DNA of 64,000 nucleotides from Alphaproteobacteria bacterium (GCA_017501665.1 JAFVWM010000038.1:69252-133251); one strand, 5' to 3'; positions 13,952 to 63,308 are shown, counted from the first letter of the stretch. Numbers and translations: made by a program. Notes: generated by a model not told the origin, from the letters alone.

Positions 13952-13960
13952 CAATCCTTT

Positions 13961-19421: not shown

Positions 19422-19438
19422 TGAGGAATGTTCAAAAA

Positions 19439-19708: not shown

Positions 19709-19729
19709 CTGTTTTTCCTTATACAAAAT

Positions 19730-20641: not shown

Positions 20642-20769
20642 ATTGTTTCCTTTGTAAATTTGATTATTTGATATGTGAATTTATCAAATAAGTCAAGATA
20701 GGTCGAAAATGCTTGCTAAATAGCCGTTTTGTGAATATAATCCGTTTATATGATATAAGGAGAAAAATT

Positions 20770-21144
20770 ATGGCTGATAAAGAACCGTCTCAAAGACAGC
20801 TTCGTGTTGCTCAAGAAATCAGAAAAATTATTGCCCAGTTTATTGATAGAGGTGAAGTCCGTAATCTGGAAGGATTGAACACGTTGGTTACGGTTACAAA
20901 AGTTACGGTTTCGCCGGATTTAAAATATTGTACGGTTTGGTTTATTGCTTCTAATAATGATATTGTACAAGAAGTTTTGGGCGGGTTGCAGTTGGCGGCA
21001 AACTATTTTAGAAAACAAGTTGCGCAAAAAACTTCTTTGCGTTATGTGCCGGAAATAAATTTCAGAGTCGACAAATCTTTTGAAGAAGTCGATAAAATTG
21101 AAAAGTTGCTTCATGATCCTCATGTTGCTCAAGATTTGAAATAA
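20770..21144 (+). CDS. rbfA: Ribosome-binding factor A.
   Basis: 'RQLRVAQEIRKIIAQFI' is typical of RbfA. The ATG at 20770 is preceded by 'aggag'. The ORF track starts earlier, at 20713. Confidence 0.85.
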   Translation: MADKEPSQRQLRVAQEIRKIIAQFIDRGEVRNLEGLNTLVTVTKVTVSPDLKYCTVWFIASNNDIVQEVLGGLQLAANYFRKQVAQKTSLRYVPEINFRVDKSFEEVDKIEKLLHDPHVAQDLK

Positions 21145-48049: not shown

Positions 48050-48136
48050 GCGCTTGTGGCGGAACAGGTAGACGCTGCAGACTTAAAATCTGTTGGCCGC
48101 AAGGCCGTGCCGGTTCGATTCCGGCCTAGCGCACCA
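48050..48136 (+). tRNA. tRNA-Leu (anticodon UAA), class II with long variable arm and encoded CCA.
   Basis: D-arm 'ggcggaacaggtagacgc', anticodon loop 'cuUAAaa', long variable arm 'gttggccgcaaggccgtgcc', T-arm 'ccggttcgattccgg', 3' 'gcacca'. There is one mismatch in the acceptor stem. Confidence 0.85.
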
Positions 48137-48283
48137 TTTAAAAAAGTCCTCTTTATGAGGGCTTTTTTAATTGGTATGATATATCAGAGTATCGAAGCGG
48201 CACGGTGCCGGTTTGAACCGCAGTTCGCAGGCGAACGGAGTGCGCCGGTCAAATTTTTGAGCGAACAAGGTCGGCGAAGCCAT

Positions 48284-48338
48284 TCCGGCCTAGCGCACCA
48301 ATTTGGAGAGGGTTGGCAAAATTTTTTGCTAACCCTTG
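48284..48338 (+). repeat. Direct repeat of the last 18 nt of tRNA-Leu, fused to att-like repeat A; the left boundary of the island stack.
   Basis: 'ttccggcctagcgcacca' is identical to tRNA positions 48119-48136. It is followed by 'atttggagagggttggcaaaattttttgctaaccct', an imperfect hairpin. Confidence 0.8.
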
Positions 48339-48627
48339 ATTTTTAAGGCTTTGCGTCGGTTCGATTGATTTCAAACGGTTACAAATTGTAACGGTTTGTT
48401 ATTTTAGAACGTTTTGCTAGTGTCAGCAAAACGATATTCCTTCCTTTTAATTATGGCGAATTTTCTACAATTAACTCAAACATATCGAATTCGACACCTT
48501 TAAGATTAGAAAAAATCCCCATACAAAATCAAACAAATTTTAATTTTTGGTTGAATTTCAAAACGTTTTACTTTAGCCTCAAGGTATTGTTATCTCCTAA
48601 ATTTAGAGCTAAAATATAAAAGATATA

Positions 48628-49734
48628 ATGAGGACACAAATGGCTAAAAGTAAAATTATGAAAAAAAATAAAAAAGAAGTTATTTATGAAGATAAATTAA
48701 ATTTATTTAAATTAAAACTTCAAGAACTAACAACTGTAGTACAAATTTATAATCCAACAAGTTCCATACTAGACATAAAGTTAGTTGATATCATAGATGA
48801 GTTAGATTTAGATAATACTGAATACTTTACTATTTCCTACTTTTATAATGGGTTAAATAAAATTTCTAGAATATTAGAAGGAAACCCCAACGACATTCAC
48901 TATACATTATGGGTTATAGTTTGCGCAACTTATGAAAGATTCTTAAAATTTAATGATTCAAAAATTTTTACCTATTTTGAAAAACTTTATTCCGGAAAAT
49001 ATTATTATAAAATATTTTCAAAAGGGAGTGGTACGACACAAAAAATGCTAGAATTACAAGCGGAGGAAAAGCGCTTTATTACAGAGAAATTAGCATTTTT
49101 GATAAATTCTAAAAAAATAAACGATATCATAGAACGCATAACAAATCCTGATGATAAGTTTATAACAATGTGCGATAAGTTAGATTCAAAAGAAAAAAGT
49201 ATTGATTCTAAGTTAGAAAAATATCAAAACCGAGCAAATGAAATTGTTAAATTCATAAAAGAACAACAAACAAAATTAAATTTTGTAGGGTTAGGTAGTG
49301 CCTTTAAACAAATAACAAAAGAAAAAAATACTGTTAAAAATAATTTAGAAAGTTACTTATTTATTACTTTCATAATATTAATAGTTATTCCTTTATCTAC
49401 AGCTATTGCAATTTTCTGTTGTGGCAAACCCAATTACTATATTTATATTCCTCTTGTAACGATAGAGCTTCTTCTGTTGTATGCGTTTAGATTGTTCTAT
49501 CAACAATATATGTTTATAAAATCAGAACTACTTCAAGTTAATTTAAGACACAGCTTATGCGCCTTTATTGAGTCATATATGGAGTTTAAGAAAAATAATA
49601 AAGATAACACAGTTGATTTATTTGAACAACTTATCTTTAGCAATATTATATCTGATGAAAAGAAAGTTCCTGCAACGGTTGATGGTTTAGATAGTATTGC
49701 AAATATAATACAATCAATTAAAGGTAGAACATAG
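48628..49734 (+). CDS. Hypothetical protein with an N-terminal soluble coiled-coil-like domain and two C-terminal TM helices; first gene of the island.
   Basis: Extremely AT-rich and Lys/Ile/Asn-rich. TM helices 'YLFITFIILIVIPLSTAIAIF' and 'IYIPLVTIELLLLYAFRLF'. No recognised motif. Confidence 0.5.
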   Translation: MRTQMAKSKIMKKNKKEVIYEDKLNLFKLKLQELTTVVQIYNPTSSILDIKLVDIIDELDLDNTEYFTISYFYNGLNKISRILEGNPNDIHYTLWVIVCATYERFLKFNDSKIFTYFEKLYSGKYYYKIFSKGSGTTQKMLELQAEEKRFITEKLAFLINSKKINDIIERITNPDDKFITMCDKLDSKEKSIDSKLEKYQNRANEIVKFIKEQQTKLNFVGLGSAFKQITKEKNTVKNNLESYLFITFIILIVIPLSTAIAIFCCGKPNYYIYIPLVTIELLLLYAFRLFYQQYMFIKSELLQVNLRHSLCAFIESYMEFKKNNKDNTVDLFEQLIFSNIISDEKKVPATVDGLDSIANIIQSIKGRT

Positions 49735-49857
49735 AACTATTGCAAAAAATTTATTGGAATAAATTATATTTCTTATAAAATTGATGAAAAACTTGATTCT
49801 TTCATAATAAGTCAGTAAATTGACGTAATCTATAACACAAGTTTGTGGGCCTAAAGT

Positions 49858-51153
49858 ATGACAAAAATAAAAAAAGAAATTACTGAAGATAATGAAAAAA
49901 TAAAGAAGGCAAGAGTGGCTGTCCAAAAAAAGGGTCTTAAACTTTCCAATGGGGAAATTATTGAAGAAAAAATATCATCACAGACATGGAAAGAAAAAGA
50001 ATTTAAATATCCTACTAAAACAATTCGAATTGGAACATGTTTTAGTGGTATTGGTGCAATTGAACACGCTTTTCAACGATTGAGATTAAACCATAAAATA
50101 ATATTTGCTGGTGACATTGATGAAAACTGCCGCAAAAGTTACTTAGCAAATTATAAGATATCTGAAGATGATTGGTTTTCTGATATCAGAGATTTCGATG
50201 CAAAAAGATATAAAAATAAAATAGATTTTTTAATAGGAGGAGCTCCATGCCAAGCATTTTCAATGGTCGGTAAAAGATTGGGGTTTGAAGATGCAAGGGG
50301 AACTTTATTTTATGAATTTGCAAGAATCATAAAAGAGACTCAACCAAAAGTTTTTCTGTTTGAAAATGTTAAAGGAATGCTAAATCATGATAACGGGAGA
50401 ACATGGAAAATAATTCACAGTATTTTTGAAGAGCTCGGATATGACATACATTTTCGTGTCTTAAATAGTAAAGATTATGGAATTCCTCAGCACAGAGAAC
50501 GTTTGTATTGTTTGGGGTTTAAGAAAAAAAGAAAATTTTTATTTCCAGCCCCTATAAAACTAGAATATACAATGTTTGATTTTTTAGAAGATTATGCAGA
50601 TTCAAAATATTTTCTAAAAGAGAAAGGCATAAAATTTGTAACTAGTCATAAAAATAAAACAAAATGCTACACTCAAATAAATGGAGACATAGCACTTTGT
50701 CAAAAAAGAAATCAAGAATTTAATTGGCACGGAGATTTTATCTTTCACCCTATTGATGAAAGTATTGATAATGAACAATATGATGAGTTTGTTTTTAACG
50801 TAAAAGATGTTGAAGAAAAATATTATCTATCTGAAAAAGTTGCAAAATATGTTTTAGCAGGAGGAACAAAAAACTTCAAGACATCTACTAAAACTGATTT
50901 AGAAATAGCTCGCCCATTATTACAAACAATGCATAAAATGCATAGGGCAGGTGTTGATAATTATGTAACTCATAACAAAGGAAGAATTAGAAAGTTAACA
51001 CCAAGAGAATGTCTAAGGTTAATGGGATTTAAAGATAGTTTTAATATTGTAGTTTCAGATACTGCGACATATCAACAAGCTGGAAATAGTATAGTTGTTG
51101 ATGTTCTTATAGCTTTGTTAAGACAGTTAGATATAACGGAATATGGTGTGTAA
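49858..51153 (+). CDS. DNA (cytosine-5)-methyltransferase.
   Basis: Motif I 'FSGIGA', motif IV 'GGAPCQAFS', motif VI 'ENVKGM', motif X 'QAGNSI'. Confidence 0.9.
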   Translation: MTKIKKEITEDNEKIKKARVAVQKKGLKLSNGEIIEEKISSQTWKEKEFKYPTKTIRIGTCFSGIGAIEHAFQRLRLNHKIIFAGDIDENCRKSYLANYKISEDDWFSDIRDFDAKRYKNKIDFLIGGAPCQAFSMVGKRLGFEDARGTLFYEFARIIKETQPKVFLFENVKGMLNHDNGRTWKIIHSIFEELGYDIHFRVLNSKDYGIPQHRERLYCLGFKKKRKFLFPAPIKLEYTMFDFLEDYADSKYFLKEKGIKFVTSHKNKTKCYTQINGDIALCQKRNQEFNWHGDFIFHPIDESIDNEQYDEFVFNVKDVEEKYYLSEKVAKYVLAGGTKNFKTSTKTDLEIARPLLQTMHKMHRAGVDNYVTHNKGRIRKLTPRECLRLMGFKDSFNIVVSDTATYQQAGNSIVVDVLIALLRQLDITEYGV

Positions 51154-52174
51154 TATGATTATAAATGATACTAAATTCAAGATAGTAGATACATTTGATA
51201 ATTTTATGACTGTTCCTGATTGTTTTGTAAAAAATCCAAACAAAATAGGAAGTGGTAATGGAGAAGCAAAATTTTACATTTCAAATAAAGATGAAATGAG
51301 AAGATTTTATGGAGGGGAAGGCTTTACAAAAAAATGTTTTTTATTAAAACAGGATTTAATAAACTATATGATAGCCGTAAAAAATGAGTATATTACACCG
51401 TCCCAAGATTATAGAAACAAAGAAGAATTTCCTACTTTATGGGATAAACGGATGTCTTTAATCAATTCCCAACCTGATGTTATAATGTTTGATATTATTG
51501 ACCAAACTCAGATTGAAGGACCTAGAGGATACGTTAACTCTAGGGATTTTGGATATGAACTCATACGAACAATAGCACTTCCTTTAATCTCATATTTGTC
51601 TGCAATGGAACTAAAGGATAAGAAAGGGGCAACATTGTATTATTGGAAATTATTTGCTGATTTTGAAGCTATTGCACAAAAAAAATGTGAACCTCTTGTT
51701 TTTAGTTACGGTAAGAAGAAAAGAGAAAACGATGAAGAAGACAAAGATAGTGAAATAATTTTACCACTAGAAACCCCGCAACAAAAAGAGATAAGATATG
51801 CAAGAAATGGACAAGGCAAATATAGGGAAACACTATTAGAAGAATGTCCCTTTTGCCCTATTACAATGATAAATGATGAACGTATACTAATTGCTAGCCA
51901 CATAAAACCATGGGCTGCGTCAAATGATAAAGAAAAAATTGACCCTCAAAATGGCTTCATGCTTTCACCATTATATGACAAACTATTTGATAGAGGTTTT
52001 ATAACATTTACAAACGATAGAATCTTACATATTTCAAAATGGATATCACCTAAGAATATTCAGCGAATGGGACTAAAAGATAAGATGTTTATACAGCAGC
52101 TGCCTTTAACTAAAGAACGTTGTTGTTACTTAGATTTTCATATATCATCGGTCTTTCATGGAATAATTGAATAA
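51143..52174 (+). CDS. HNH-family endonuclease, the candidate type II restriction enzyme partner of the MTase.
   Basis: 'CPFCPI...HIKPWAASNDKEKIDPQNGFMLSPLYDKLFDRGFITF' is an HNH-type motif. The gene overlaps the MTase by 11 nt. Confidence 0.65.
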   Translation: MVCNMIINDTKFKIVDTFDNFMTVPDCFVKNPNKIGSGNGEAKFYISNKDEMRRFYGGEGFTKKCFLLKQDLINYMIAVKNEYITPSQDYRNKEEFPTLWDKRMSLINSQPDVIMFDIIDQTQIEGPRGYVNSRDFGYELIRTIALPLISYLSAMELKDKKGATLYYWKLFADFEAIAQKKCEPLVFSYGKKKRENDEEDKDSEIILPLETPQQKEIRYARNGQGKYRETLLEECPFCPITMINDERILIASHIKPWAASNDKEKIDPQNGFMLSPLYDKLFDRGFITFTNDRILHISKWISPKNIQRMGLKDKMFIQQLPLTKERCCYLDFHISSVFHGIIE

Positions 52175-52564
52175 CAAACAAATACAACAGATAAAAGAGC
52201 GGCATTTTATGATGTCGCTCTTTCTAGTTATGTATATGCATAACTTCACCCTTTCAAGCAATCTTTACCTTAAATAGTATTGATTACGAATGTTTTGTTT
52301 TGCTTGATATATCAAGCATTCTGTTAAAAAGCAATTTGCTGCAATATAGCATACATCTGCAGGTGTCCTAGCTTGAGTAAAATCATAGCACGTTTTTGCT
52401 CTTGACACCCAAGATAGTACAGTTAACAATTCTAACACATTTCTCAACCTCCAATCAGAACCCTAGACTTGATATAACACAACAACATATTGTGTTTTAT
52501 CGGATTCGTAATACATTATATTGAAATAAATTTAGATTGTCAAATTAGCGAAGTCTAATATTTC

Positions 52565-53095
52565 TTAGGCATTGGTCACATCTCCCATCATCCTCTCCAC
52601 ATCCTCCAAATCAATACCTTTTGATGATAAAACAGACATCAAGGTTTCTAGTGCGTTTTTGTAGCTATCTCGCTCATTTTCTAATGATTTGATACGGATT
52701 TGAGCCTCGTTTAGCTCATTTTTATAGTAGTTTGCCCATTGCTCTTGGTCTTGGGCATCGTGTTTTAGCATATTCTTTTCAATGTTGCCCATATTAACAC
52801 CGTCTAGAGGCATAAATTCGCGTCCGGAGAGCGATAATTGTCTTCTGCCCTTATCATCACAGTTTTTTATCAAATAACCCTCTCTGACGAGTTTATTAAC
52901 CATAACTTTGGTTGATGAAGTTTTACAACAAATCGCCTTTGCCAATGTCTCGTTATTCATGAAAAATTTGAAGTTGCGATTGGTTTTATAACCGATATAT
53001 GTTAAAATTAAACGCTCTGTAATAGTGAGCTTTCTTTGTCTTTCACTCATTTTAATTCCTTTAATATGTATTTTAACATGAGTATTTATCGGCAA
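52565..53095 (-). CDS. Winged-helix DNA-binding protein, a putative iteron-binding autoregulator or replication-initiator-like protein.
   Basis: 'LTITERLILTYIGYKTNRNFKFFMNNETLAKAICCKTSSTKVMVNKLVREGYL' looks wHTH-like. A C-terminal coiled coil is present. The iteron array lies immediately upstream. The start may be at 53050 (MSERQRK). Confidence 0.5.
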   Translation of the reverse strand: MPINTHVKIHIKGIKMSERQRKLTITERLILTYIGYKTNRNFKFFMNNETLAKAICCKTSSTKVMVNKLVREGYLIKNCDDKGRRQLSLSGREFMPLDGVNMGNIEKNMLKHDAQDQEQWANYYKNELNEAQIRIKSLENERDSYKNALETLMSVLSSKGIDLEDVERMMGDVTNA

Positions 53096-53130
53096 ATTTT
53101 ACGCTTTGTAATTTTAACAAAAAATGCTGC

Positions 53131-53274
53131 GGAAATGAATATTTCCACCTAAAATCGCAGCGGAAATGGATATTTCCACTAAAACGCCAAATGGAAATGA
53201 ATATTTCCGCTATCGGAAACGGTTATTTCCGTAGGTGGAAATGGATATTTCCGTAAGCGGAAACAGATATTTCC
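53131..53274. promoter_or_regulatory. Array of six 16-bp imperfect palindromes 'GGAAA(T/C)NNNTATTTCC' (iterons or operators).
   Basis: Units start at 53131, 53162, 53193, 53215, 53237 and 53259 (see finding at 52565-53290 for spacing and sequences). Confidence 0.75.
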
Positions 53275-53632
53275 GCCGCACTTTGCTGAAACTGTTGATA
53301 CACAAGGAATTGAGAGCTGTTTTTTGCTCCTATAATATAATTATAATAGAAATAAAATAGCTATTATAATAGCAAAATTTGTTTTGATTAAAATACAAAA
53401 CCAAAGGAAATCAAAGGGATTTAACTCACTTAAAATAAAAAAAGTGCAATAGGAATACCCATCGCACTTATTTGTTAAAAAACATATTAATGAAGTAAAA
53501 GGCAATATTTAACTTCACATGTATTTATCGGTTAATTAAGCGAATTTGTTAAAATAAAAAATTACAAGTTGTAATGATAAATACATTTGTAATGAAGAAA
53601 AAGGAGCAAATATATTCGGCTACAATGCGATA

Positions 53633-53827
53633 ATGTCAGTGATTTTGAACGAAAATATGACTGATGAGCAAAAACTGGATGTGATTCAAATGTTGATTGA
53701 TAAGGGATGTGATGTAAATTGGCTCAATTACCAACGCGAAACAGCACTTCTTATCGCTTTGGAACGAATAGAAATAGATATTGCTAATTTGCTTTTAGAC
53801 AATGGTGCAGTGATTTATAAGGAATAA
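53633..53827 (+). pseudogene. Short ankyrin-repeat-like ORF, likely a gene remnant.
   Basis: 'ETALLIALERIEIDIANLLLDNGAVIYKE' resembles an ankyrin repeat consensus; only 64 aa. Confidence 0.35.
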
Positions 53828-53888
53828 GCCCATTAAATCATAAATTCTCCTACAAAATCGCTACTTTTAATGAAGTGGCGGTTTTGTT

Positions 53889-54449
53889 TTACAAATTAGA
53901 ATTATCTATATCAATCCAATATCTTTTATACTTCTGCCCATTATTTTGCCATGGTAACGTAATTATATTTTCTAAAACACCACCATTTTTTTCAATGGCT
54001 TTCCAAGAGCCTATATTTTCTTCTTTAGCAGCTATAAGCAATTTATTCATTCCTAATTCACGAGCTTTTATTATTAGCAATGATAAACCTTTGGTTGCAT
54101 ATCCCTTTCTTCTGTACTTAGGCGTAACGCCGTATCCGACATTTCCGCCGATATACATTAAAAAATCATTCAACTCCGTTCGCAAATTAAATGCACCAAT
54201 AAATTTTCCTTCATCTATAAGCCAATATGGTATTTGCGGGGCATTGGGATAATATTTGCCATCATCCCGCAATCTTGGTGTAGGGTCATAAGGCTTTAGT
54301 ACTTTATTCATTAAAAAAGCTTCAAAATCTTTTTCAATATCAGCAATTGCATCATCACTCATCGGCGATTGTGAGCCTAAATAAAATCCATCTTTTAATG
54401 CTTCAACAAAACTATCTTTGTATTTTACATCCGGTTTGACTAGTTCCAT
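53889..54449 (-). CDS. GNAT-family N-acetyltransferase.
   Basis: 'KYRRKGYATKGLSLLI' is GNAT motif A. Confidence 0.65.
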   Translation of the reverse strand: MELVKPDVKYKDSFVEALKDGFYLGSQSPMSDDAIADIEKDFEAFLMNKVLKPYDPTPRLRDDGKYYPNAPQIPYWLIDEGKFIGAFNLRTELNDFLMYIGGNVGYGVTPKYRRKGYATKGLSLLIIKARELGMNKLLIAAKEENIGSWKAIEKNGGVLENIITLPWQNNGQKYKRYWIDIDNSNL

Positions 54450-54482
54450 ATCATAATCCTTTCTTTAATCACATCTTGTGAT

Positions 54483-54575
54483 ACCTAGTGAATTTGTTCG
54501 GCATTTGGTTTTCTTGCCGTTTTGGTCGGTGTAGGTTGTAACGCCTAATGAATTTGTGCGAGCTTTTATAGTGTT
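54483..54575. repeat. ~93-nt exact duplicate of the 3' end of the repeat-protein gene (55383-55475), displaced into an intergenic position.
   Basis: 'acctagtgaatttgttcggcatttggttttcttgccgttttggtcggtgtaggttgtaacgcctaatgaatttgtgcgagcttttatagtgtt' is present at both sites. Confidence 0.85.
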
Positions 54576-54591
54576 ATTTACTTGCTGAAAC

Positions 54592-55278
54592 TTATTTTAA
54601 TTTTTTCTTTAGTTCTACTGAATCTACATTAATTTTTTTTCTTATTATTTCCAATGCTTGTTTTATATTATCTGCTGCAACTTTTCTTCGTAGTGTAGGC
54701 CAACCATCATATCCTCGCCACATAGCCATGAGATTAGAATTTGAAACATTTTCGACATATCTCTTTATTATTTCTTTTTTATTATTCATTATTTGTACTT
54801 CAACTTCCAGCGTTTCTTTTAATTTATTGTACGGAAACCCCATAAAATTAATAGTAAATAACGAAACAATTGAAACTAAGGGATAAACATATGATTGTTC
54901 ACTTCCTCTATATCCTAATCTTAGTGAAATATATCCTTTTTTAACACCATAAGGATTAGATATATTTTCTAAGACTTCTTTATTAAAAATATTTATAGCA
55001 TCATTAACTCGAGCATCTTTATAATGTTGCCCTTGTGTGTTAGCTATCTGAGCCCATCCTCCGAAAGCATGATTATTCATATATGCAGTTCCAAAATTAT
55101 TCGCTATACTGCTAAATGAACCACTTGAATATGTAGCTTCTAAATTATTAATATCAACCAATATATCTATAGCCGGTAATAAATTATTATTAGGTTCAAT
55201 TATTGGATTAACATCTTGATATGTTATCGATTTACATGAACATAATAAAAAACAGGCTACGTAAAATATCTTTTTCAT
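54592..55278 (-). CDS. Putative lipoprotein, unknown function.
   Basis: 'MKKIFYVACFLLCSCKS' is a lipobox-like signal. Confidence 0.5.
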   Translation of the reverse strand: MKKIFYVACFLLCSCKSITYQDVNPIIEPNNNLLPAIDILVDINNLEATYSSGSFSSIANNFGTAYMNNHAFGGWAQIANTQGQHYKDARVNDAINIFNKEVLENISNPYGVKKGYISLRLGYRGSEQSYVYPLVSIVSLFTINFMGFPYNKLKETLEVEVQIMNNKKEIIKRYVENVSNSNLMAMWRGYDGWPTLRRKVAADNIKQALEIIRKKINVDSVELKKKLK

Positions 55279-55367
55279 ATTCTAGTCCTTTTAGCTATAT
55301 AACTCATGTGACTAGTCTAAACATAAGAAACAAAAAGATTCAACAATTTTATTGTATTAGTAGCGAT

Positions 55368-55769
55368 TTAATCGCACCTCGTAACACCTAGTGAATTTGT
55401 TCGGCATTTGGTTTTCTTGCCGTTTTGGTCGGTGTAGGTTGTAACGCCTAATGAATTTGTGCGAGCTTTTATAGTGTTGCCTTTATTATCTTTATAAGTG
55501 GTCGTCCCAAGCGAATTTGTTTTTGCTGTGCCTCTTGTGCCATCGCTACCGGTATAGGTTGTTGTACCCAAAGAGTTGGTTCTTGCTTTTACTTTATTTC
55601 CTTTGTTATCGGTATAAGTCGTTACACCGAGTGAATTTGTGCGAGATTTGATAATCCGACCGTCATTATCCTTACAAGTTGTAACCCCCAAAGAATTGGT
55701 AGAGCAACGCATATCAGCCCAAGCCGAGCCGACACAAAACATACAAATCAAAGCAATTACATACCGCAT
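55368..55769 (-). CDS. Small secreted protein made of six 21-aa tandem repeats.
   Basis: Signal peptide 'MRYVIALICMFCVGSAWA'. Repeats are of the form 'RTNSLGVTTYTDNKGNKVKA' (63-nt DNA repeats). Confidence 0.6.
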   Translation of the reverse strand: MRYVIALICMFCVGSAWADMRCSTNSLGVTTCKDNDGRIIKSRTNSLGVTTYTDNKGNKVKARTNSLGTTTYTGSDGTRGTAKTNSLGTTTYKDNKGNTIKARTNSLGVTTYTDQNGKKTKCRTNSLGVTRCD

Positions 55770-55773
55770 CCAA

Positions 55774-56505
55774 TCATTCCTTTTTTCCAAAAATATAACA
55801 AATAGGATTTGCCATACCGTATTTCTTAAATGAATTATGCTTGTTTACATATTGTGGGTATTGAGACGAGACATCAACACCTTCAAATAACCAACGTTTT
55901 CTTCCTCTTTCATCAGTCTCATTACTCCACTGAAGCGGTTTATATACAGCTCTAAATATTCCATGGTATTCACTAATTACTAATTCAATATCTTTTATCT
56001 TATTAGAATTTAACAACCAGCTTTTTCGTGTCGCCTCATAAACATCTTTGGCTGTTTCATAAGTTTTGTTTATATTAACAATCAAACAATTATGAAAAAT
56101 ATCTTCTTTTGCTATGTCATCAACACAATAAAAGGCTTCAATTTCAGATATTGATTTCATACCGTTATCAAGAGAATGATATCCACCCATAATATTTAAT
56201 AAATTTCTATCATTCCAAGATTTTGAAGAGAAAATATCAATCAATGCGGCTTCTAAATGAAATGCTTCAATTTCTGTTAGACCATGTCTAATGATAAATT
56301 TTTGAACATTTGCTCCCGATGATTTTATGTCCGCAATTCGTTTGTTTTTCTCTTTTTCCGCAACTTCTTGTTCGTGAGCAAATACTCTATTACCACAACC
56401 TTTGCCAATATAGAATATTTGTTTATTGCGAGAATCAATTAAACAGTATACATAATAACCAATACTTTCTATTGTAGCTTTAGAAAATTCAATAACATCA
56501 GACAT
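55774..56505 (-). CDS. GIY-YIG nuclease-domain protein with a C-terminal domain of unknown function.
   Basis: 'YYVYCLIDSRNKQIFYIGKGCGNRVFAH' is the GIY-YIG motif. The start is taken at 'MSDVIEF', which is preceded by 'aggag'; the ORF track begins earlier, at 56556. Confidence 0.65.
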   Translation of the reverse strand: MSDVIEFSKATIESIGYYVYCLIDSRNKQIFYIGKGCGNRVFAHEQEVAEKEKNKRIADIKSSGANVQKFIIRHGLTEIEAFHLEAALIDIFSSKSWNDRNLLNIMGGYHSLDNGMKSISEIEAFYCVDDIAKEDIFHNCLIVNINKTYETAKDVYEATRKSWLLNSNKIKDIELVISEYHGIFRAVYKPLQWSNETDERGRKRWLFEGVDVSSQYPQYVNKHNSFKKYGMANPICYIFGKKE

Positions 56506-56638
56506 CAAAACATCTCCTAACATCATTATCTTACAAGCTATATAACGAAAAAACAAAGAAAAAAGTTCAGTTTATGCTATAATTTATAGCTTTTTTAACA
56601 AACTGTGCTTTATCATTTTTATAAAGAGTGAGGTTTAG

Positions 56639-57199
56639 ATGAACTACAAATTTGGTGTTTATGGCGATAGTATTGCATTTGGTTATGGCAACAATAACCA
56701 AAGTTGGTTTGATGAGCTTTATTTAGGAAATGAAGCTTTGAAACTCGCGCAAAACGGTGAGAAGATTGAAGATGTTTTACGCAAAATCAAACAAGACGAC
56801 AATCATTATGACACTTTGTTTTTAGCAGTAGGCATTAACAATTTGCTGTCCGGAGCTCCTAAACCCAACCGAATAGACATTTCCAGTCTTATCAATCAGT
56901 ATGAAGAAGTCTTAAAAGTAGCCAAAACAAAGGCTTCTAACATTATTGTTCAGTCAGTTTTACCTGTCAGGGAAGAGCTTTTTCCAAATCAAGCTTGGCT
57001 TGATGAGGATAAATGGGGTTTTAATGCAGATGTTGAAACATTTAATCAAAAACTGGCAAAACTGTGTGAAACGCATCAAATCAAGTATTTAGATGCTTAT
57101 ATGAGCTTTTGCTCACTGGATTTATCAAAGATTTATATGGATGCTGTCCACTTAAATAAAGAAGGACAACAAGAACTTGCGATGGTTTATAAGAAATAA
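56639..57199 (+). CDS. SGNH/GDSL hydrolase.
   Basis: 'FGVYGDSIAFGYG' is the GDS(L) block I; C-terminal 'DAVHLNKEG' is the DxxH block V. Confidence 0.7.
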   Translation: MNYKFGVYGDSIAFGYGNNNQSWFDELYLGNEALKLAQNGEKIEDVLRKIKQDDNHYDTLFLAVGINNLLSGAPKPNRIDISSLINQYEEVLKVAKTKASNIIVQSVLPVREELFPNQAWLDEDKWGFNADVETFNQKLAKLCETHQIKYLDAYMSFCSLDLSKIYMDAVHLNKEGQQELAMVYKK

Positions 57200-57368
57200 G
57201 AATTTTGTCATTTTATAAAAGATATAACCAAACCTTGGATTTCTTTCGAAAAGACCCATTGCTCGAAGCAATTTGTTGTATTTGTCGCTTTTATCGGTCA
57301 TTTCAAAAAATGCGTACAAATAGACTTCTTTAAAAGGTGTTATTCTTCTATAAATTGATTATATAAAA

Positions 57369-58013
57369 CTATCTTTCTTTATCTTGTTTTAGTTGCTCAT
57401 TATAGCTGTTTTGTAGTAAACTATATATCTCGCAACCGGCTTTTATATCAAAGTATGATTTCAATTTATATCTTGGTTCTATTACTTCTTGAGGTAATTC
57501 TACTCCATGGCGTTCAGAATATTCTTTTGCTCTTTGCTCCAACGTAACAATACCATCTTTATTTGCCAAACTATCAGCTAATTGTATTAATAAATCCTCA
57601 TCTGTTGTTTCATGTTTTTTAATAAAATCTGCAACAAAATCATAATCCTCTTGTTTATAAAAAAACATTTTTGAACATTTTTCATATTCAGGTAACTTAT
57701 TCCAAGGAAACATATGAAGCAATGCAGAACGAGCTGACTTTTCATCAATATCCTTCAGTTTTTCATACCCTAATATTCCATGAAATCTTTGTTTTCTATC
57801 TTCTTCTGTACGGCATATATCATGCAACATTGCAGAAACATATACTTCTCCAATATTCATACCATCTATTTTAGAAGCTATTTTTTTTGCAACGTTGGCA
57901 ACCCCCATAATATGATTTTCATAAGTAAACCATGTTTCTGGCTTTCTTCCTAAAATTATTTCTCTTTCTTTTAGTTCTTCTATTAATTTTTTTGCATTTT
58001 CAATTGATAGCAT
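57369..58013 (-). CDS. HD-domain phosphohydrolase.
   Basis: 'HIMGVANVA...SAMLHDICR' is the H...HD motif. Confidence 0.65.
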   Translation of the reverse strand: MLSIENAKKLIEELKEREIILGRKPETWFTYENHIMGVANVAKKIASKIDGMNIGEVYVSAMLHDICRTEEDRKQRFHGILGYEKLKDIDEKSARSALLHMFPWNKLPEYEKCSKMFFYKQEDYDFVADFIKKHETTDEDLLIQLADSLANKDGIVTLEQRAKEYSERHGVELPQEVIEPRYKLKSYFDIKAGCEIYSLLQNSYNEQLKQDKER

Positions 58014-58069
58014 ATATTTGCTCCTATATTTTTTACCGATTTTATATTATCAAGACAAAAAGTAAATAT

Positions 58070-58312
58070 CTATTTCAAATATCCTCTAACCAAACCTTGG
58101 ATTTTGCTTGTATATCTGGAAGCTTTGAGAAGGTTTTTATATCTATCTCTTTGGTCTGTCATTCCAAAGAAAGCACAAAGCAACATTTGTCCTAAATCAT
58201 CAGCTCGTTTCATAACATCTTGAAGCAATTCTTCAAAAGTACCGTTATAGGCTTCTTTTAAGATTTTGTAGCTTTTAATCTTCTTACGATTTTCGTTCAA
58301 AAACTTGCCCAA
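58070..58312 (-). CDS. Small hypothetical protein.
   Basis: 80-aa ORF; no motif. Confidence 0.3.
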   Translation of the reverse strand: MGKFLNENRKKIKSYKILKEAYNGTFEELLQDVMKRADDLGQMLLCAFFGMTDQRDRYKNLLKASRYTSKIQGLVRGYLK

Positions 58313-58552
58313 ACTATCAATATCATTAAAATTCTTATACCCTTTACGGTTTGTAATAACTCAATTAACATTTCTTATATTAAGAAGGGAAAACTAATCA
58401 ATCATCGATTTGAATACGATGATACGGAAAAATATACTCCGACCGATGAGGTGAAACGGATTTTGAGGAATTTGAGATAATAATAAAAATTATCCTTTTC
58501 TACTTGATTTTATTTCTTATAGATAATATAATATCTATAAGATTGTTAAATA

Positions 58553-58870
58553 TTGATTAAGGATAATATAATGTCTTTTATACTAAAGTCCCCATTAGAA
58601 GTTATGCAAGATATTGCTTATAAAGCGAAATCCAAACGTTTAGAGCAGAATTTAACACAACAAGGGTTGTCTGTTCGTTCAGGTGTGAGTTTGGGTACAA
58701 TTAAGCGTTTTGAGCGTTTTGGCGAAATATCTCTTAAATCTTTAATTGATATTGCTTTAACTTTAGGCTGTATGAATGATTTTGAAGAACTTTTTAAGGA
58801 TAATCAAAAACCACAAAGCCTTTTTGAAAAAAAATCTGACCAAACACGCAAAAGAGGAACAATAAAATGA
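58553..58870 (+). CDS. hipB: HipB-like XRE-family HTH antitoxin.
   Basis: 'LTQQGLSVRSGVSLGTIKRFERF' is an HTH; 4-nt overlap with hipA. Confidence 0.75.
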   Translation: MIKDNIMSFILKSPLEVMQDIAYKAKSKRLEQNLTQQGLSVRSGVSLGTIKRFERFGEISLKSLIDIALTLGCMNDFEELFKDNQKPQSLFEKKSDQTRKRGTIK

Positions 58871-60039
58871 GGTTAAATGTATTTTTGAATACTTATGGAA
58901 ACCGTCTTTTTGTAGGTGTTTTGGAAGAACAGAAGCAACGTATATTTTTTGAATATGCGCCGGAGTTTATTCAATCAAACATTCCTTTATCACCTTTTAT
59001 GCTTCCTTTAAAACAACAAGTTTATGAAGATGAAAAATACACTTTTGATGGTTTATTCGGTGTATTTAATGATAGTTTACCGGATGGTTGGGGGTGCTTA
59101 TTATTAGATAGAAAACTACAAAAAAAAGGTTTGAGTTATAATTCAATCACTCCTTTGCAACGATTATCTCTTATCGGCTTAAATGCTATGGGTGCTTTAG
59201 AATATGAACCCATAACCGAAATTGATAAAGAATTTGTCGGAGATATAGTGTTGGATGCTTTATCAATGGAAGCCGGCAAAATTTTACAAGGCAACAGTTC
59301 AGATGTTTTAGATGAACTTTTAAGCCTTAATGGGTCTTCAGGGGGAGCAAGACCCAAAATCGTAGCACTTGTTTCAAAAGATAAACAAACATTGATTCAC
59401 GGAAACCTTACACAAGAAAATTATGAGCCTTGGTTAATAAAATTTAACTCATCTCTTGATGACAAAGATATCGGAGCAAAAGAATACATTTATTCATTGA
59501 TGGCTAAGGATGCAGGAATTGAAATGCCTGATACCTTTTTGTTCCCTTCAAAAGATAGTAGTGGACATTTTGGTGTAAAACGCTTTGATAGAACAACAGA
59601 AAGTAAAATTCATGTTCATACAGCATGTGGATTGTTGCATGCAAGCCACCGTTTTGCTTCTTTAGACTATACATCTCTCTTAAAATTAACAGCAATTTTA
59701 ACCAAAGATGTCCGTGAAGTTGAAAAAATGGTCAGATTAATGATATTCAACATCAAATCCAATAATAAAGATGACCACAGCAAAAACTTTTCATTTATGC
59801 TAACAAAAGATAATGTCTGGAAAATGACACCGGCATACGATTTAACTCCATCTCAAGGTTTAAATGGTGAACAAACAGCAATGGTAAATGGTAAAGGAAA
59901 AAATATCACAAAAGAAGACTTTATAAAAGTTGCAGAACCTTTTGGTTTTGATGCTAAAAAAGTAGAAGAAATTGTAGAACAAGTTGATGATGCTTTATTC
60001 TGTTACAAAAAATATGCAAGCAATGTTGGGATTAAGTAA
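58867..60039 (+). CDS. hipA: HipA-family Ser/Thr kinase toxin.
   Basis: HipA N-terminal region 'LSPFMLPL', 'FGVFNDSLPDGWGCLLL'. Catalytic 'NNKDDHSKNFSF' matches the D-x-H-x-KN-S motif. Confidence 0.85.
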   Translation: MRLNVFLNTYGNRLFVGVLEEQKQRIFFEYAPEFIQSNIPLSPFMLPLKQQVYEDEKYTFDGLFGVFNDSLPDGWGCLLLDRKLQKKGLSYNSITPLQRLSLIGLNAMGALEYEPITEIDKEFVGDIVLDALSMEAGKILQGNSSDVLDELLSLNGSSGGARPKIVALVSKDKQTLIHGNLTQENYEPWLIKFNSSLDDKDIGAKEYIYSLMAKDAGIEMPDTFLFPSKDSSGHFGVKRFDRTTESKIHVHTACGLLHASHRFASLDYTSLLKLTAILTKDVREVEKMVRLMIFNIKSNNKDDHSKNFSFMLTKDNVWKMTPAYDLTPSQGLNGEQTAMVNGKGKNITKEDFIKVAEPFGFDAKKVEEIVEQVDDALFCYKKYASNVGIK

Positions 60040-60165
60040 TTAGTTATAAATGTTAAACAATATGCACAAACTAATCTGTTCTTTCATTTCTAAAATTTCC
60101 TCTCTGTGCTCTATAAAAAAGTTGATATTAATACTCAATTTTATAGTATTTTCACTATAACGTGG

Positions 60166-60251
60166 CGCACCAATTTGGAGAGGGTTATCAAAGAATTTTG
60201 CTAACCCTGTACAGTCTGGCTGGAGACGACTTGCAATCTGCGAGTAAATTG
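60166..60251 (+). repeat. att-like composite repeat: repeat A (a copy of 48294-48338) immediately followed by repeat B (a copy recurs at 62016-62051).
   Basis: 'gcgcaccaatttggagagggttatcaaagaattttgctaaccct' + 'gtacagtctggctggagacgacttgcaatctgcgagtaaattg'. Confidence 0.8.
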
Positions 60252-60328
60252 CATATAAAAAGCATTGAAAATATAATTTATTTCTGTAATAATTTATCTG
60301 AGTTAAACAAAGACCTAATGGGGATAAT

Positions 60329-61147
60329 ATGTTCAAACTAATTGATTTTGATGATAAAATTTTCACTTCTCAACAATTTAAGAAAGACGAAATTTCGTTT
60401 AATATAATTCTTACTTTGATACAAAAACGGGAATATTATCCTCAAATCAAGTGTTATTCTGACCAAAAAGATGTCATAATTTTAAATACAGATGCTAATC
60501 ATCCAGTCGTTGTTTGGACAAGTGAAAATTTTAATGATTTTGAATTAATTTATAATTTTGTAAGTAAAGTTTTTTCTAAAAACGAACCTTTAAGCCTTAT
60601 TGCTAAACAATCTTGTTATCAATTTTTTCAGAAAAGAAACTGGGTTTCAGATGATGAAAATACAAAAATTCTTGGTGTTTATAAATTAGATAAACTGATA
60701 GATATTGAAAAACAAGGATATCTTGATTGTGTAAAATCAACAGATGTTGAAATAGTTGCCAATATGATAAAAGCTTTTGAGGAAGAAGCACTACCTGAAG
60801 AAAAACATCCTTTTTCTTATTATTTAGAGCAAGCAAATAAATATACCACACTTGCTTATACTCACAAAGTATGGAAAAATGAAAATGGAAATATTGTTAG
60901 TATTGGACATATAAATAACTCTGAAAACACAGGAAGAATAAGCCAAATATATACTGTTCCAACAGAAAGAGGTAAATCTTATGCCAAAATGTTGGTTGTA
61001 GAATTAGCAGAAATTACGTTAAAAAATAATTTAATGCCAGTTTTATATACTAATTTTCAATATGAACCATCAAATAAATGTTATCAAGCAGTTGGATTTG
61101 AATTATTGAATACAATATATACTTACTCAGTAAAAAAGATTGCATAA
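60329..61147 (+). CDS. Hypothetical protein with a probable C-terminal GNAT-like fold.
   Basis: C-terminal 'ISQIYTVPTERGKSYAKMLVVELAE' resembles acetyltransferase motif A. Confidence 0.4.
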   Translation: MFKLIDFDDKIFTSQQFKKDEISFNIILTLIQKREYYPQIKCYSDQKDVIILNTDANHPVVVWTSENFNDFELIYNFVSKVFSKNEPLSLIAKQSCYQFFQKRNWVSDDENTKILGVYKLDKLIDIEKQGYLDCVKSTDVEIVANMIKAFEEEALPEEKHPFSYYLEQANKYTTLAYTHKVWKNENGNIVSIGHINNSENTGRISQIYTVPTERGKSYAKMLVVELAEITLKNNLMPVLYTNFQYEPSNKCYQAVGFELLNTIYTYSVKKIA

Positions 61148-61449
61148 ACATTTTTTAATTAAATATTTTTTATTTAACCTTTGCAAAAATTTGCATAGGT
61201 TCCTTTTTTGCTCAAAAAAGGCTAAAATTAGCTAAGTTATTGAAAAATATAGAACAGAGTTCGAAGATGTTGTAAAACAAGCTATCAAAACATATTCATC
61301 TTCGAACCAGTTTAAGTGCTTGGAAATACAAGTTATTTTGTTAATAGATGTCTTGCTATGAGTAAATAGGTATAGATAGAGTTTATTATTGCATTAAGAT
61401 ATATTTTGTGGTATATGTTTATAAGTGTAATTTATAATCAGTATTAAAA

Positions 61450-61947
61450 ATGTTAAGGTTTCAAAATTTAGTTATTAGAAAAGCGCAAATAACAGATGTT
61501 CCTCAATTGGTTTCTTGGTGGAATGATGGAAAAGTTATGGCGCATGCTGGCTTTCCAAACGGATTAGGTACAACTTCGGAAAAAGTAATATCTCTTCTAC
61601 AAAAAGATACAGAGGATAGATGTCATTTTATAATTGAAATAGATAATGCTTCTGTAGGAGAAATGCATTATAAAAAAATAAAAGACTTTTATGTGGAAAT
61701 TGGTATTAAGATTTGTGAACAAGATTTTCAAAATAAAGGATTTGGAAAAAAGATTTTATCTCTTTTTATTCAAGAGTTATTTCATAATAAATGTTATAAA
61801 ATAATTCAGATTAATGTCTCAAATGCAAACAATATTGCAAAACATGTGTATACACAGTTAGGGTTTAAAGAAAAATTTAAAGCCGCAGATTTATCTTATG
61901 TACAATATGAACTTGCTTTAGCTGATTTTGTTAGTTATTTAAGGTAA
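61450..61947 (+). CDS. GNAT-family N-acetyltransferase (aminoglycoside / ribosomal-protein acetyltransferase-like).
   Basis: 'FQNKGFGKKILSLFIQELF' is motif A. Confidence 0.7.
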   Translation: MLRFQNLVIRKAQITDVPQLVSWWNDGKVMAHAGFPNGLGTTSEKVISLLQKDTEDRCHFIIEIDNASVGEMHYKKIKDFYVEIGIKICEQDFQNKGFGKKILSLFIQELFHNKCYKIIQINVSNANNIAKHVYTQLGFKEKFKAADLSYVQYELALADFVSYLR

Positions 61948-62015
61948 ATGTTTTATACAAGTAAAACTTATGTTAATTTTAGCAGAAAATACTTTTTAAA
62001 TATGGCTTTTTAACT

Positions 62016-62051
62016 CTGACTGAAGACGACTTGCAATCTGCGAGTAAATTG
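62016..62051 (+). repeat. Repeat B copy, the right boundary of the second small island unit.
   Basis: 'ctgactgaagacgacttgcaatctgcgagtaaattg' matches 60216-60251 at 33 of 36 positions. Confidence 0.8.
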
Positions 62052-62132
62052 GTGATATTTAAATAAAGTTATTGAAAAACAGAATACAAACAATAGTATT
62101 AAATAAAACAAGATATACGAAAAGGGAATAGC

Positions 62133-62693
62133 ATGAAAGTACTTTACATTAATTCTTGTATAAGAGAAAACTCTCGAACAAAAACATTAGCTGATTATTT
62201 AGTTAATAAAATCGGTGGTAATGTTAAAGAAATAGTGTTGAGTAAAGAAAAAATATCACCGGTTGATAGTGCTTTTTTGCAAAAAAGAGATAAGCTAATA
62301 TCTGAAGGCAATTTTAATGATGAAATGTTTTCATATGCTAAAGATTTTGCAGAAGCTGATGTTATTGTTGTTGCTGCGCCTTACTGGGATTTGTCTTTTC
62401 CATCAATATTAAAAGTATTTTTTGAACATATTAACGTATTAAAATTGGTTTTTGATTATTCTGATAAGGGCGAAATAGTTTCCTTGTGCAAAGCAAAAAA
62501 ACTTTATTATATAACGACCAAAGGCGGATATGGTCCTGATGATTTTGGTTTTAGGTATATTGAAGCTTTAAGTAAAACATTTTATGGTATAAGAGATGTT
62601 GTTTTAATTAATGCTGAAGGTCTGGATATATATGGTAATAATGTTGAAGATATTTTAGCTAAAGCAAAAGAAGATATAGATAAAGTAGTATAA
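62133..62693 (+). CDS. Flavodoxin-like fold NAD(P)H-dependent oxidoreductase (FMN reductase / azoreductase-like).
   Basis: 'MKVLYINSCIRENSRTKTLADYL...ADVIVVAAPYWDLSFPSILKVFFEHI' is typical of the Flavodoxin_2 family. Confidence 0.65.
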   Translation: MKVLYINSCIRENSRTKTLADYLVNKIGGNVKEIVLSKEKISPVDSAFLQKRDKLISEGNFNDEMFSYAKDFAEADVIVVAAPYWDLSFPSILKVFFEHINVLKLVFDYSDKGEIVSLCKAKKLYYITTKGGYGPDDFGFRYIEALSKTFYGIRDVVLINAEGLDIYGNNVEDILAKAKEDIDKVV

Positions 62694-62697
62694 ATCA

Positions 62698-62949
62698 CTA
62701 TTTTATAAAGTCATAAATAGCTTTATACAGATCATCTTGATTTTGTTTTTTTACAAAATTGTGTGTACTTTGCGAAATTTTTGCAATTTTTGCTTTCATC
62801 AAGTCGGCAACCTTATGAACATCTTTTTCTTCAATTACCCTATCTTTTTCTGCAGTTGCTTCTAATTCTTGACGCTGTTTCGCAATTTGCTCTTGTTTTG
62901 CTTCATATGTTGCTTGAGGAAGTTTTCCTTCTAAATAAAAATCAAGCAA
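62698..62949 (-). pseudogene. Possible C-terminal fragment of a (serine) recombinase-type gene.
   Basis: 83-aa coiled-coil-like 'DFYLEGKLPQATYEAKQEQIAKQRQELE...' with no upstream continuation. Weak resemblance only. Confidence 0.25.
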
Positions 62950-63308
62950 AGCATAGTCTTTTGTTTTTTATTCAATAGAGGCTTAAATTTGTCTGCTAAT
63001 TGACTTTGTATTTAATAATCATTGGGCTTGAATTGTCGTATTCCAAGCCCTTAATAAAAGAAACTTCGCTATTGTGAAGTATTATAATAATCAATATTCG
63101 GTGATTGAGATGTAGAAACCAACTGCTTCACTTCTTTGTTCTGATATAACGCAATGTCTGTTGGTTGAATATATAATCATCTGCTAATTTATATAAAATT
63201 AGTTATTGTTTTATCAAAAAGGTACTAAATATTAATACTTTACAAAAGTGGATATTTGTAGTAATATTATATATATATGATAAATAAAATTTAACGAAGG
63301 AAAAAGAT

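Follow-up and report, generated by a model that had tools for sequence, protein, structure and literature searches.

How did the DNA that follows a leucine tRNA gene come to lie there, and do the copies of the tRNA 3' end within it mark the ends of integrated elements? This question is raised by a 64,000-nucleotide (nt) stretch of the genome of Alphaproteobacteria bacterium (GCA_017501665.1 JAFVWM010000038.1:69252-133251; hereafter the window), in which tRNA-Leu(UAA) is followed by three repeats that an initial annotation had described as related attachment (att)-like sites bounding a stack of decayed islands. On balance, the locus is read here as an integration hot spot with layered foreign DNA. 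In this reading an integrase-less unit of 11.8 kb (unit 1), carrying a restriction-modification (R-M) pair and hipBA, would have been integrated site-specifically, and the DNA to its right would have been remodelled at two other repeats, B and C. As for the initial annotation as a whole, its observations were confirmed with small corrections of coordinates, and its interpretation was partly supported.

The DNA behind the tRNA gene is foreign to the core chromosome. ARAGORN identified tRNA-Leu(taa) as the single tRNA of the window, in agreement with Rfam. The genes upstream of it are core genes (uvrB, pssA, psd), and the psd-tRNA-Leu junction is kept in ~50 related metagenome-assembled genomes (MAGs). 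These relatives were gathered by a psd-anchored scan with one genome per species and are all uncultured Alphaproteobacteria, mostly from the gut; relatives and contigs are denoted below by L numbers. Nucleotide similarity to the relatives covers psd and the tRNA and ends at the tRNA end or within ~80 nt beyond it. The GC content is 0.375 before the tRNA (1-48049) and drops in the three segments behind it to 0.307, 0.258 and 0.284, with no recovery before 64000. Within 10 kb downstream of the relatives' tRNA-Leu, no homologue of the window's island proteins was found, except for weak GNAT and GDSL paralogues and for three short blocks in the closest relative, L004 (92% flank identity). The blocks comprise most of orf64, the TNSLG-repeat gene, and 86 nt from the 5' end of the GIY-YIG gene. 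The low GC content and the absence from this position in ~50 related genomes bear out the earlier statement that the enclosed genes are unrelated to the core, for which a contrast in GC content had been suggested as a check.

The site is variable across the clade, and its right border is not reached in the window, because 12 relatives share a right-flank block that opens with a flavin-reductase-like gene at 0.9-6.6 kb from the tRNA, and this block is not in the window. The island had been given an end at 62051, which does not hold: low-GC, strain-variable DNA continues to 64000 and beyond. Comparison with the relatives, as had been suggested, showed different DNA after the tRNA, but the sequence beyond 62.05 kb, expected to belong to the flank, is also missing from their tRNA-Leu loci.

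A separate observation concerns gene order. At 5.0-9.0 kb past its tRNA-Leu, L006 carries homologues (68-89% amino acid (aa) identity) of window genes at 17169-21141, and these counterparts sit 27-31 kb upstream of tRNA-Leu in the window. The tRNA locus is therefore also a synteny breakpoint between species.

The evidence for site-specific integration lies in the repeats that bound unit 1 (48337-60164, 11,828 base pairs (bp)). The 18-nt 3' end of tRNA-Leu, TTCCGGCCTAGCGCACCA, is present again at 48283-48300. Its recurrence had been noticed before, with a start at 48284 and a gap of 148 bp; counting the preceding A, the identity amounts to 19 nt and the gap between the tRNA end and the copy to 146 bp. 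In local alignment this displaced copy scored 38, versus at most 25 in shuffles. Its final octamer, GCGCACCA, opens the first copy of a second repeat, A, whose two copies (U1 and U2) flank unit 1. The octamer occurs three times on both strands of the window, at the tRNA end and in each copy of repeat A. The two copies are identical at 39 of 44 positions (89%), as had been estimated, with U2 beginning one nucleotide before the position first given (60166). They match exactly in the first 22 nt and the last 13 nt, and the five mismatches lie inside a hairpin with a 13-bp stem followed by a T-run. The hairpin of U1 is the best terminator-like site of the region (-18.4 kcal/mol, z -4.2), and that of U2 is degraded (-13.0 kcal/mol, z -1.9). 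At up to three mismatches, repeats A and B have no further site in the 64-kb window, and 100 shuffles gave 0 matches. A degenerate-pattern scan for the A hairpin in JGI metagenomes and exact-pattern searches for A and B in viral contigs returned nothing and are uninformative on dispersal.

The two copies of repeat A differ in their surroundings. On the left of U1 stands the tRNA end, and on the left of U2 unrelated AT-rich sequence up to GCGCACCA; U1 and U2 share the 22 exact nt and the hairpin, and diverge beyond. We propose that this layout is the pattern expected of an attB x attP crossover inside GCGCACCAATTTGGAGAGGGTT. An alternative proposal for U2 is that it forms the left end of the next element instead of the attR of unit 1.

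Integrase-bearing elements occupy the same position in related species. In L017, a 500-aa tyrosine integrase (PF00589, 6.9e-11) begins 135 nt past tRNA-Leu, and the 18-nt tRNA end recurs exactly 7.19 kb downstream. This second repeat is followed by a second copy (98.7%, 158 nt) of the post-tRNA sequence, indicating two related elements in tandem. The same element ends surround a 3.9-kb low-GC insert in L019, where the different, higher-GC sequence past the second repeat is taken to be native DNA. In L016, L024 and L025 the tRNA is followed by this left end too, and L013 has the right end. The site is an integration hot spot, given that integrase elements occur at this tRNA together with the 18-nt repeat. 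The integrase element family was observed at tRNA-Leu(UAA) in at least six related species, the L017 copy lying at 10949-18296 (reverse-complemented) and L016 holding an integrase fragment.

Between the tRNA and its displaced 3' end lies an inner layer, a 146-bp module that the initial annotation had left uncounted. It opens with T1, a clade-typical terminator at 48138-48170 (-17.3 kcal/mol, z -6.3), and then carries a palindrome, ATCGAAGCGGCACGGTGCCGGTTTGA, at 48191-48216, whose right half is a copy of the tRNA T-arm sequence. In L005, where the T-stem of the tRNA is changed, the palindrome is changed along with it. T1 and ~60 nt are common to L005, L006 and L008 and partly to L048 and L054. 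Homologues of the complete module, second tRNA-end copy included, were found in L004, L006 and L008; its first half is present in L005, and the alignments with L048 and L054 are partial. The two hairpins of the module show four compensatory pairs among 4 species. After the second tRNA-end copy, L006 and L008 carry a second copy of each species' own terminator. A spacer of different sequence, ~210-230 nt long and closed by a degenerate tRNA-end copy, takes this place in L026 and L032. In L005, 1.1 kb with a 305-aa open reading frame (ORF) comes after the first half of the module; next come GCGCACCA, a terminator and, for a second time, the start of the module. The module is probably the joined arms of an earlier element that was almost fully deleted, a miniature attL-attR remnant; other possibilities are a secondary attachment site and a small, structured element of RNA or DNA. 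Just after hairpin A, a degenerate fragment resembling the tRNA variable arm and T-loop, AAGGCTTTGCGTCGGTTCGATT, is possibly an older att scar. It scored 23, borderline against whole-window shuffles, and lies within 250 nt of the tRNA. The window and L004 diverge at 48376/48377, after which L004 has another CCAATTTGGAGA motif. Each of the weaker tRNA-like fragments falls within the shuffle range, and it is their clustering beside the tRNA that is suggestive.

An Rfam search of 44-64 kb (E-value up to 1) returned only the tRNA and one chance microRNA match, so the 146-bp module and repeats A, B and C are outside the described RNA families.

Taken together, the layout suggests the following course of events, in which we infer the integrase-mediated crossover behind U1 and U2, the order of steps and the loss of the integrase. 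In an innermost layer, the 146-bp module, closed by the 19-nt copy of the tRNA 3' end, would be what is left of an earlier element. Unit 1 would then have entered by site-specific recombination at the combination of tRNA 3' end and terminator hairpin, with the crossover in the 22-nt exact block. U1 would thus be attL-like, with the host tRNA end on its left and element sequence on its right, and U2 attR-like, with element sequence on its left followed by GCGCACCA and the hairpin. The attP of the element would mimic the tRNA end plus terminator, so that a terminator would be restored behind the RNA gene. Loss of the integrase would have left unit 1 unable to move by itself, while retention and defence cargo would have been kept: the type II R-M pair, hipBA, PD-T4-3 and a Rep-like gene with iterons. 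Further right, small gene modules separated by B and C would continue past the window, and a 1.8-kb unit with two GNAT genes would have been gained or lost through recombination between B copies, not integrated into the tRNA.

The two copies of repeat B, which had been reported before with the second at 62016, are identical at 35 of 37 positions (27 nt exact) and bound the 1.8-kb unit (60252-62014, 1,763 bp). Both units of the initial annotation were thus recovered, but within corrected limits. No tRNA sequence is present in repeat B, and the tRNA 3' end was therefore not the target of the 1.8-kb unit. A decayed tRNA 3' end in the reverse complement of B was considered and dropped, as only ~9-10 of 16-17 positions match. 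Other strains have a single B. In L084, L087 and L088, contigs from other samples that are 98.8% identical over the flavodoxin-like gene, one B with a B1-type left part and a B2-type right flank stands directly before that gene. The two-GNAT unit is therefore a presence/absence polymorphism, and the single-B arrangement represents an empty site or the product of a deletion.

Repeat C is an intergenic sequence of ~160 nt with a core, GCTAAGTTATTGAAAAATATA, and then a 10-11-bp stem, GTTCGAAGATG...CATCTTCGAAC, which in one copy (L111c) is preserved through compensatory changes. Besides the full copy between the GNAT genes and the partial one in the window, C was located in the same strain shortly beyond the window end (L107, 1303-1484), after orf83 (the ORF at 62698-62949) in L084-type strains (L084, 927-1088), at three places in L111 (1540, 4100 and 6173), and in L094 and L110. 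It is missing from the other 48 kb (core) of the window and from the tRNA-Leu loci of the relatives. Profile searches revealed real copies in the metagenome contigs L128, L150, L181, L191 and L195; the 18-nt core proved too short and AT-rich as a query, most of its ~150 matches being chance. In L181, an unrelated metagenome contig, a B-like copy (118-182, 94% over 36 nt) with a terminator hairpin ahead of it is followed by three small lipoprotein genes and then by C at 1828-1982. Since B and C surround different cargo and carry no tRNA sequence, they belong to a recurrent intergenic repeat family and are not tRNA att sites.

These results divide the earlier interpretation. Of the three repeats held to be related and att-like, B does not belong with the others. 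Tandem accretion at the tRNA 3' end agrees with the tRNA sequence carried by the first two repeats and with the hot spot in the relatives, but not with the 1.8-kb unit. The islands had also been called fixed and decaying; no integrase remains, but they are not simply fixed, as other strains lack the 1.8-kb unit or have the hairpin rearranged. The A hairpin stands directly ahead of B and the flavodoxin-like gene in other strains (L087 1-146, L088 and L084 1-38). L087 keeps the window's order of hairpin and B, but on the left of the hairpin it has the reverse complement of what lies right of U1, in a version like that of L004. This arrangement suggests an inversion of the whole island by recombination between two palindromic hairpin copies.

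Several observations weigh against site-specific entry of unit 1. Neither an integrase nor an excisionase nor a circular junction was observed for it, and none of the strains and contigs examined has an empty U1/U2 site. The arms of the integrase family in the relatives are unrelated to the sequences beside U1 and U2. The copies of repeat A were counted over the 64-kb window, the rest of the genome lying outside that count. U1 lies 146 bp past an intact tRNA and not inside it; therefore, either a displaced secondary site was used, or the module entered later, though it is shared by more distant species. Furthermore, unit 1 is a mosaic of which only pieces are common to L004, in another context and arrangement. 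It contains internal repeat-flanked and microhomology indels (at a 112-bp repeat and at the GIY-YIG gene), and it may never have been a single element. The repeat-flanked indels at B and C show that recombination unlinked to the tRNA also shapes the region.

The main alternative is a possible but less probable explanation in which the locus is a hypervariable accessory and defence slot. Homologous or short-homology recombination at the A hairpin, B, C and the 112-bp repeat would swap, delete and invert modules between strains, and the tRNA-end copies would be old scars without a role in delivery. The cargo found with B and C elsewhere (lipoprotein genes between B and C in L181, three C copies in L111) agrees with it. 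So do at least three further repeat or microhomology indels, at the GNAT pair (B), the 236-aa ORF (parts of C) and the lipoprotein gene (112-bp repeat), as well as the GIY-YIG gene at its CATC microhomology. The inverted left flank of L087 is as expected from two recombining palindrome copies, the pieces of unit 1 are scattered in L004 in another arrangement, and no integrase is present. Against this stand the last 19 and 8 nt of the tRNA in U1 and U2, a specific mark of tRNA-att duplication, and integrase-mediated insertion at the same site in relatives; moreover, 22 nt of exact identity offer little length for efficient exchange by RecA. Such a slot and site-specific entry of unit 1 are compatible and not exclusive.

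It is improbable that the A hairpin, B and C are the recombination sites of a dedicated cassette system, an integron-like or CALIN-like (cluster of attC sites lacking integron integrases) idea with different sites that would move single-gene modules (GNAT, aminoglycoside phosphotransferase (APH), chloramphenicol acetyltransferase (CAT), flavodoxin-like). In the window, L110 and L111, acetyltransferase- and phosphotransferase-type modules are indeed separated by conserved hairpin-bearing repeats of ~40-160 nt, the stem of C is retained through compensatory changes in L111c, and the presence/absence polymorphisms have exact boundaries at the repeats. However, no gene for an IntI-like or other recombinase lies nearby in any contig examined, the genes stand in both orientations, and by eye neither B nor C fits the attC R''/R' consensus (RYYYAAC...GTTRRRY); the identification of C as attC was rejected on these motif grounds. 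The two copies of B end 77 and 81 nt upstream of the start codon that follows, and by eye B looks like a -35 box plus spacer, although a simple promoter scan did not flag it, and a terminator hairpin follows several C copies. B and C may thus be shared expression signals that double as homology for recombination. With as little confidence can one picture an undescribed, non-integron system of cassette exchange that would build arrays, defence genes included, beside tRNA-Leu in gut RF32-like Alphaproteobacteria, with the post-tRNA module and its T-arm palindrome as the primary docking site.

A chimeric contig that joins strains at short repeats is very unlikely, since independent assemblies of several samples repeat every junction with 99.8-100% identity (Table 1), even though the source is an assembly from an uncultured organism and the breaks of many short contigs from other samples fall at U1, C and 63067 or close by.

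Table 1 Features of the tRNA-Leu(UAA) locus and of its junctions (positions in window numbering)
Feature	Position	Strand	Evidence or remarks
tRNA-Leu(UAA), intact, locus anchor	48050-48136	+	ARAGORN; Rfam tRNA 55.1 bits
146-bp module	48137-48282	+	terminator T1, T-arm palindrome, second hairpin
Displaced exact copy of the last 19 nt of tRNA-Leu, att-type direct repeat	48282-48300	+	local alignment
Repeat A, copy 1 (U1)	48293-48336	+	GCGCACCA, then ATTTGGAG, then 13-bp-stem terminator hairpin; proposed attL-like junction of unit 1
Degenerate tRNA variable-arm/T-loop-like fragment	48345-48366	+	AAGGCTTTGCGTCGGTTCGATT; just after hairpin A
Membrane protein, first gene of unit 1	48640-49734	+	phrog_9373; not an integrase
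Type II R-M pair	49858-52174	+	C5 cytosine methyltransferase 49858-51153; HNH endonuclease 51143-52174
Replication-like module	52565-53278	-	winged-helix HTH_36/replication-initiator-O-like protein 52565-53095; iterons 53129-53278
Accessory genes	53633-55790	mixed	ankyrin-like orf64 (+); GNAT 53889-54449 (-); lipoprotein-like 54592-55278 (-); TNSLG-repeat secreted protein 55368-55790 (-)
GIY-YIG protein, PD-T4-3 homologue (single-gene anti-phage system)	55774-56556	-	PADLOC 1.4e-41; Pfam LEM-3_GIY-YIG
GDSL hydrolase and HD-domain protein	56639-58013		GDSL 56639-57199 (+); HD 57369-58013 (-); Pfam
hipBA toxin-antitoxin pair, right end of unit 1	58553-60039	+	HTH_3; HipA_C 7e-49; Couple_hipA
Repeat A, copy 2 (U2)	60165-60208	+	last 8 nt of the tRNA and degraded hairpin; proposed attR-like junction of unit 1
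Repeat B, copy 1 (B1)	60215-60251	+	
Cargo of the 1.8-kb unit	60329-61947	+	GNAT 60329-61147; repeat C 61166-61324; GNAT 61450-61947 (Pfam; nhmmer for C)
Repeat B, copy 2 (B2)	62015-62051	+	
Flavodoxin-like/NAD(P)H-dependent FMN reductase-like gene	62133-62693	+	Pfam Flavodoxin_2 1e-20
orf83, chimeric ORF, recombination scar	62698-62949	-	homologues P0003/P0005 and P0002
Strain-variable module	62955-64000	+	partial left part of C ~62955-62991, then 236-aa ORF 63309 to ~64019, past the window end
Junction tRNA-U1-R-M			independent assemblies L001, L095
Junction R-M to HTH gene			independent assemblies L096, L100, L101
Junction HTH gene to orf83, across U2, B1 and B2			independent assembly L099
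Junction HipA-U2-B1-GNAT			independent assemblies L091-L093; 100%
Junction GNAT-B2-flavodoxin			independent assemblies L085, L086, L102

The contigs of the same strain used for these junctions came from several independent metagenomes and were retrieved by exact-protein look-ups; the look-up with HipA as delimited here gave no record.

Within the two units, the genes listed by the initial annotation were found again: the C5 methyltransferase with its HNH enzyme, the iterons with HTH_36, HipB and HipA, the three GNATs (two of them in the 1.8-kb unit) and the GIY-YIG protein. The R-M pair was recognized by Pfam (methyltransferase 1.8e-82, HNH 3.5e-11) and by PADLOC as MTase_II plus HNH REase. 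Six 22-bp palindromic repeats lie just upstream of the HTH_36 gene start. The 176-aa product of this gene matched Pfam at 3.6e-5 (23.9 bits versus a cut-off of 25 bits) and the PHROG replication initiation O-like family at 4e-4, and the repeats could be replicon iterons or, equally, operators. The lipoprotein-like gene is flanked by 112-bp direct repeats (54464-54575 and 55367-55478, 96%), one of which forms the 3' end of the TNSLG-repeat gene, and is another repeat-flanked insertion within unit 1. orf64 and the TNSLG-repeat gene are common to L004 and the window at ~90%. L004 lacks the GIY-YIG gene (window 55772-56508 versus 16825-16930 of reverse-complemented L004), its flanks meeting at a CATC microhomology. 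In the window this gene stands at the very start of the TNSLG-repeat gene, and both ORFs begin with MMLGDVLM.

That no intact integrase is present, as the initial annotation stated, is upheld: according to Pfam, no ORF in 48-64 kb contains an integrase or recombinase domain, PF00589 included, and the L017 tyrosine integrase gave only chance matches to the window in tblastn. In unit 1, no excisionase, relaxase or phage gene was found, and no conjugation or mobilization genes or remnants were found either. PHROG matches were confined to families of unknown function and to the weak replication-O-like family, which does not indicate a phage, and megablast of 48137-64000 against plasmids and phages gave no match.

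The possible recombinase fragment that had been placed at 62698-62949 turned out differently. orf83 has no match in Pfam, PHROG or plasmids (tblastn). Its aa 1-36 correspond to the beginning of ORFs of 123-141 aa (P0003, P0005), a family that aligns weakly with positions 417-505 of 558 of the model for the large serine recombinase CcrC (E-value ~4e-4; 19 bits versus a cut-off of 900), the region matched being the C-terminal coiled coil. Its aa 37-83 (47 aa) correspond to the C-terminus of an alpha/beta hydrolase (P0002; DLH 3.6e-5). orf83 is a fusion across a deletion, without a catalytic part. Just past the window end, a 30-aa helix-turn-helix (HTH) fragment has only sub-threshold matches to HTH_23 and HTH_7. 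The closest full-length relative of the N-terminal part, P0003, was seen at the end of contig L094 (1-10426), beside genes for a prokaryotic Argonaute (pAgo, Piwi), a DpnII/MboI-type gene and two MmeI/Eco57I-like N6_Mtase genes, which together resemble a defence island.

On the right side, the flavodoxin-like gene has no match in the tRNA-Leu loci of the relatives. The module of the 236-aa ORF (62992 to ~64385; ORF product MBR2922896.1), which L084-type strains lack, has a partial C on one side and a full C on the other. The extension of this side could be followed to ~64572 (window numbering) in the same strain (L107) and over ~10 kb each in L110 and L111. L110 (3088-12327) and L111 (1848-10736) carry the 236-aa ORF (90-97% identical) with more accessory genes to its right, for CAT, a hexapeptide acetyltransferase, a GNAT 83% identical to window 53903-54462, an APH-like kinase, LemA and an S66 peptidase. 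It follows that the variable region runs on for at least another 10 kb. Neither a further tRNA-end repeat nor the right flank of the related MAGs was found in L110 and L111.

The locus, which contains defence and addiction genes, presents a footprint of horizontal transfer of textbook type in uncultured Alphaproteobacteria of the gut, a lineage about which little is known. It identifies tRNA-Leu(UAA) as a site of repeated integration in this clade and brings with it a family of integrase elements in related MAGs, two facts that aid the annotation of MAGs and the understanding of strain-level variation. It poses no new mechanistic question, unless B, C or the post-tRNA module prove to be active recombination sites.

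Compared with known systems, the structure is of a known kind, a tRNA-linked island remnant with putative att sites, which departs from that kind in its lack of an integrase in 48-64 kb. It adjoins a tRNA and has repeats containing the tRNA 3' end (19 nt, and 8 nt with a shared 36-nt extension), its GC content is 0.31 versus 0.375, and its genes are absent from the tRNA-Leu loci of relatives. An integron or CALIN is not indicated, as inspection showed no attC cores in B and C, gene orientations are mixed and no IntI was found. Nor is an island of the large-serine-recombinase type (staphylococcal cassette chromosome (SCC) or ssrA genomic island (GI)), to which only the 36-aa stretch of a family weakly matching CcrC could be related.

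Integration, decay to a cis-mobilizable element (CIME) and accretion are three steps reviewed for ICESt1/ICESt3-type elements of Streptococcus thermophilus (PMC5704250). Unit 1 resembles a CIME in its tandem position beside other elements and in carrying no genes for integration or transfer. The att-like repeats that bound it are just 89% identical (39/44, 22 nt exact) and putative as att sites, and no related autonomous element with the same arms was found: the elements of L016, L017, L019, L024 and L025 share the tRNA 3' end as their target, but have arms unrelated to the flanks of U1 and U2.

CGI48 of Shewanella putrefaciens is reported to be a composite island at tRNA-Trp stabilized by HipAB (PMC8978831), and the present locus is likewise composite, at a tRNA gene and with a hipBA pair. 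By analogy, hipBA could explain the retention of an otherwise immobile island. CGI48 is described as capable of reverting to its component parts, whereas the present locus contains no recombinase gene. Reported defence islands on integrated mobile elements (PMC10201445) provide a further likeness, in that the R-M pair, the PD-T4-3 homologue and the toxin-antitoxin pair are clustered in a low-GC element; the cargo here differs in being mixed with GNAT, GDSL, HD, flavodoxin-like and lipoprotein genes, and the defence roles are predicted.

A close parallel is offered by the ssrA islands of Dehalococcoides (PMC3146451), which lie in tandem with direct repeats of the RNA gene 3' end, some of them without integration modules and possibly fixed or cis-mobilizable. 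There, a serine recombinase of ~540 aa is used, whereas the relatives of the present strain carry a tyrosine integrase. Unlike those islands, the window has only two tRNA-derived repeats (19 nt and 8 nt) and no integration module, and its repeat reaches 36 nt past the tRNA into the terminator hairpin. In both cases, nevertheless, a single-copy RNA gene is followed by low-GC, strain-specific islands bounded by direct repeats (~20 bp) of the gene 3' end, with the insertion point, putative in the present case, in the T-loop/3' region.

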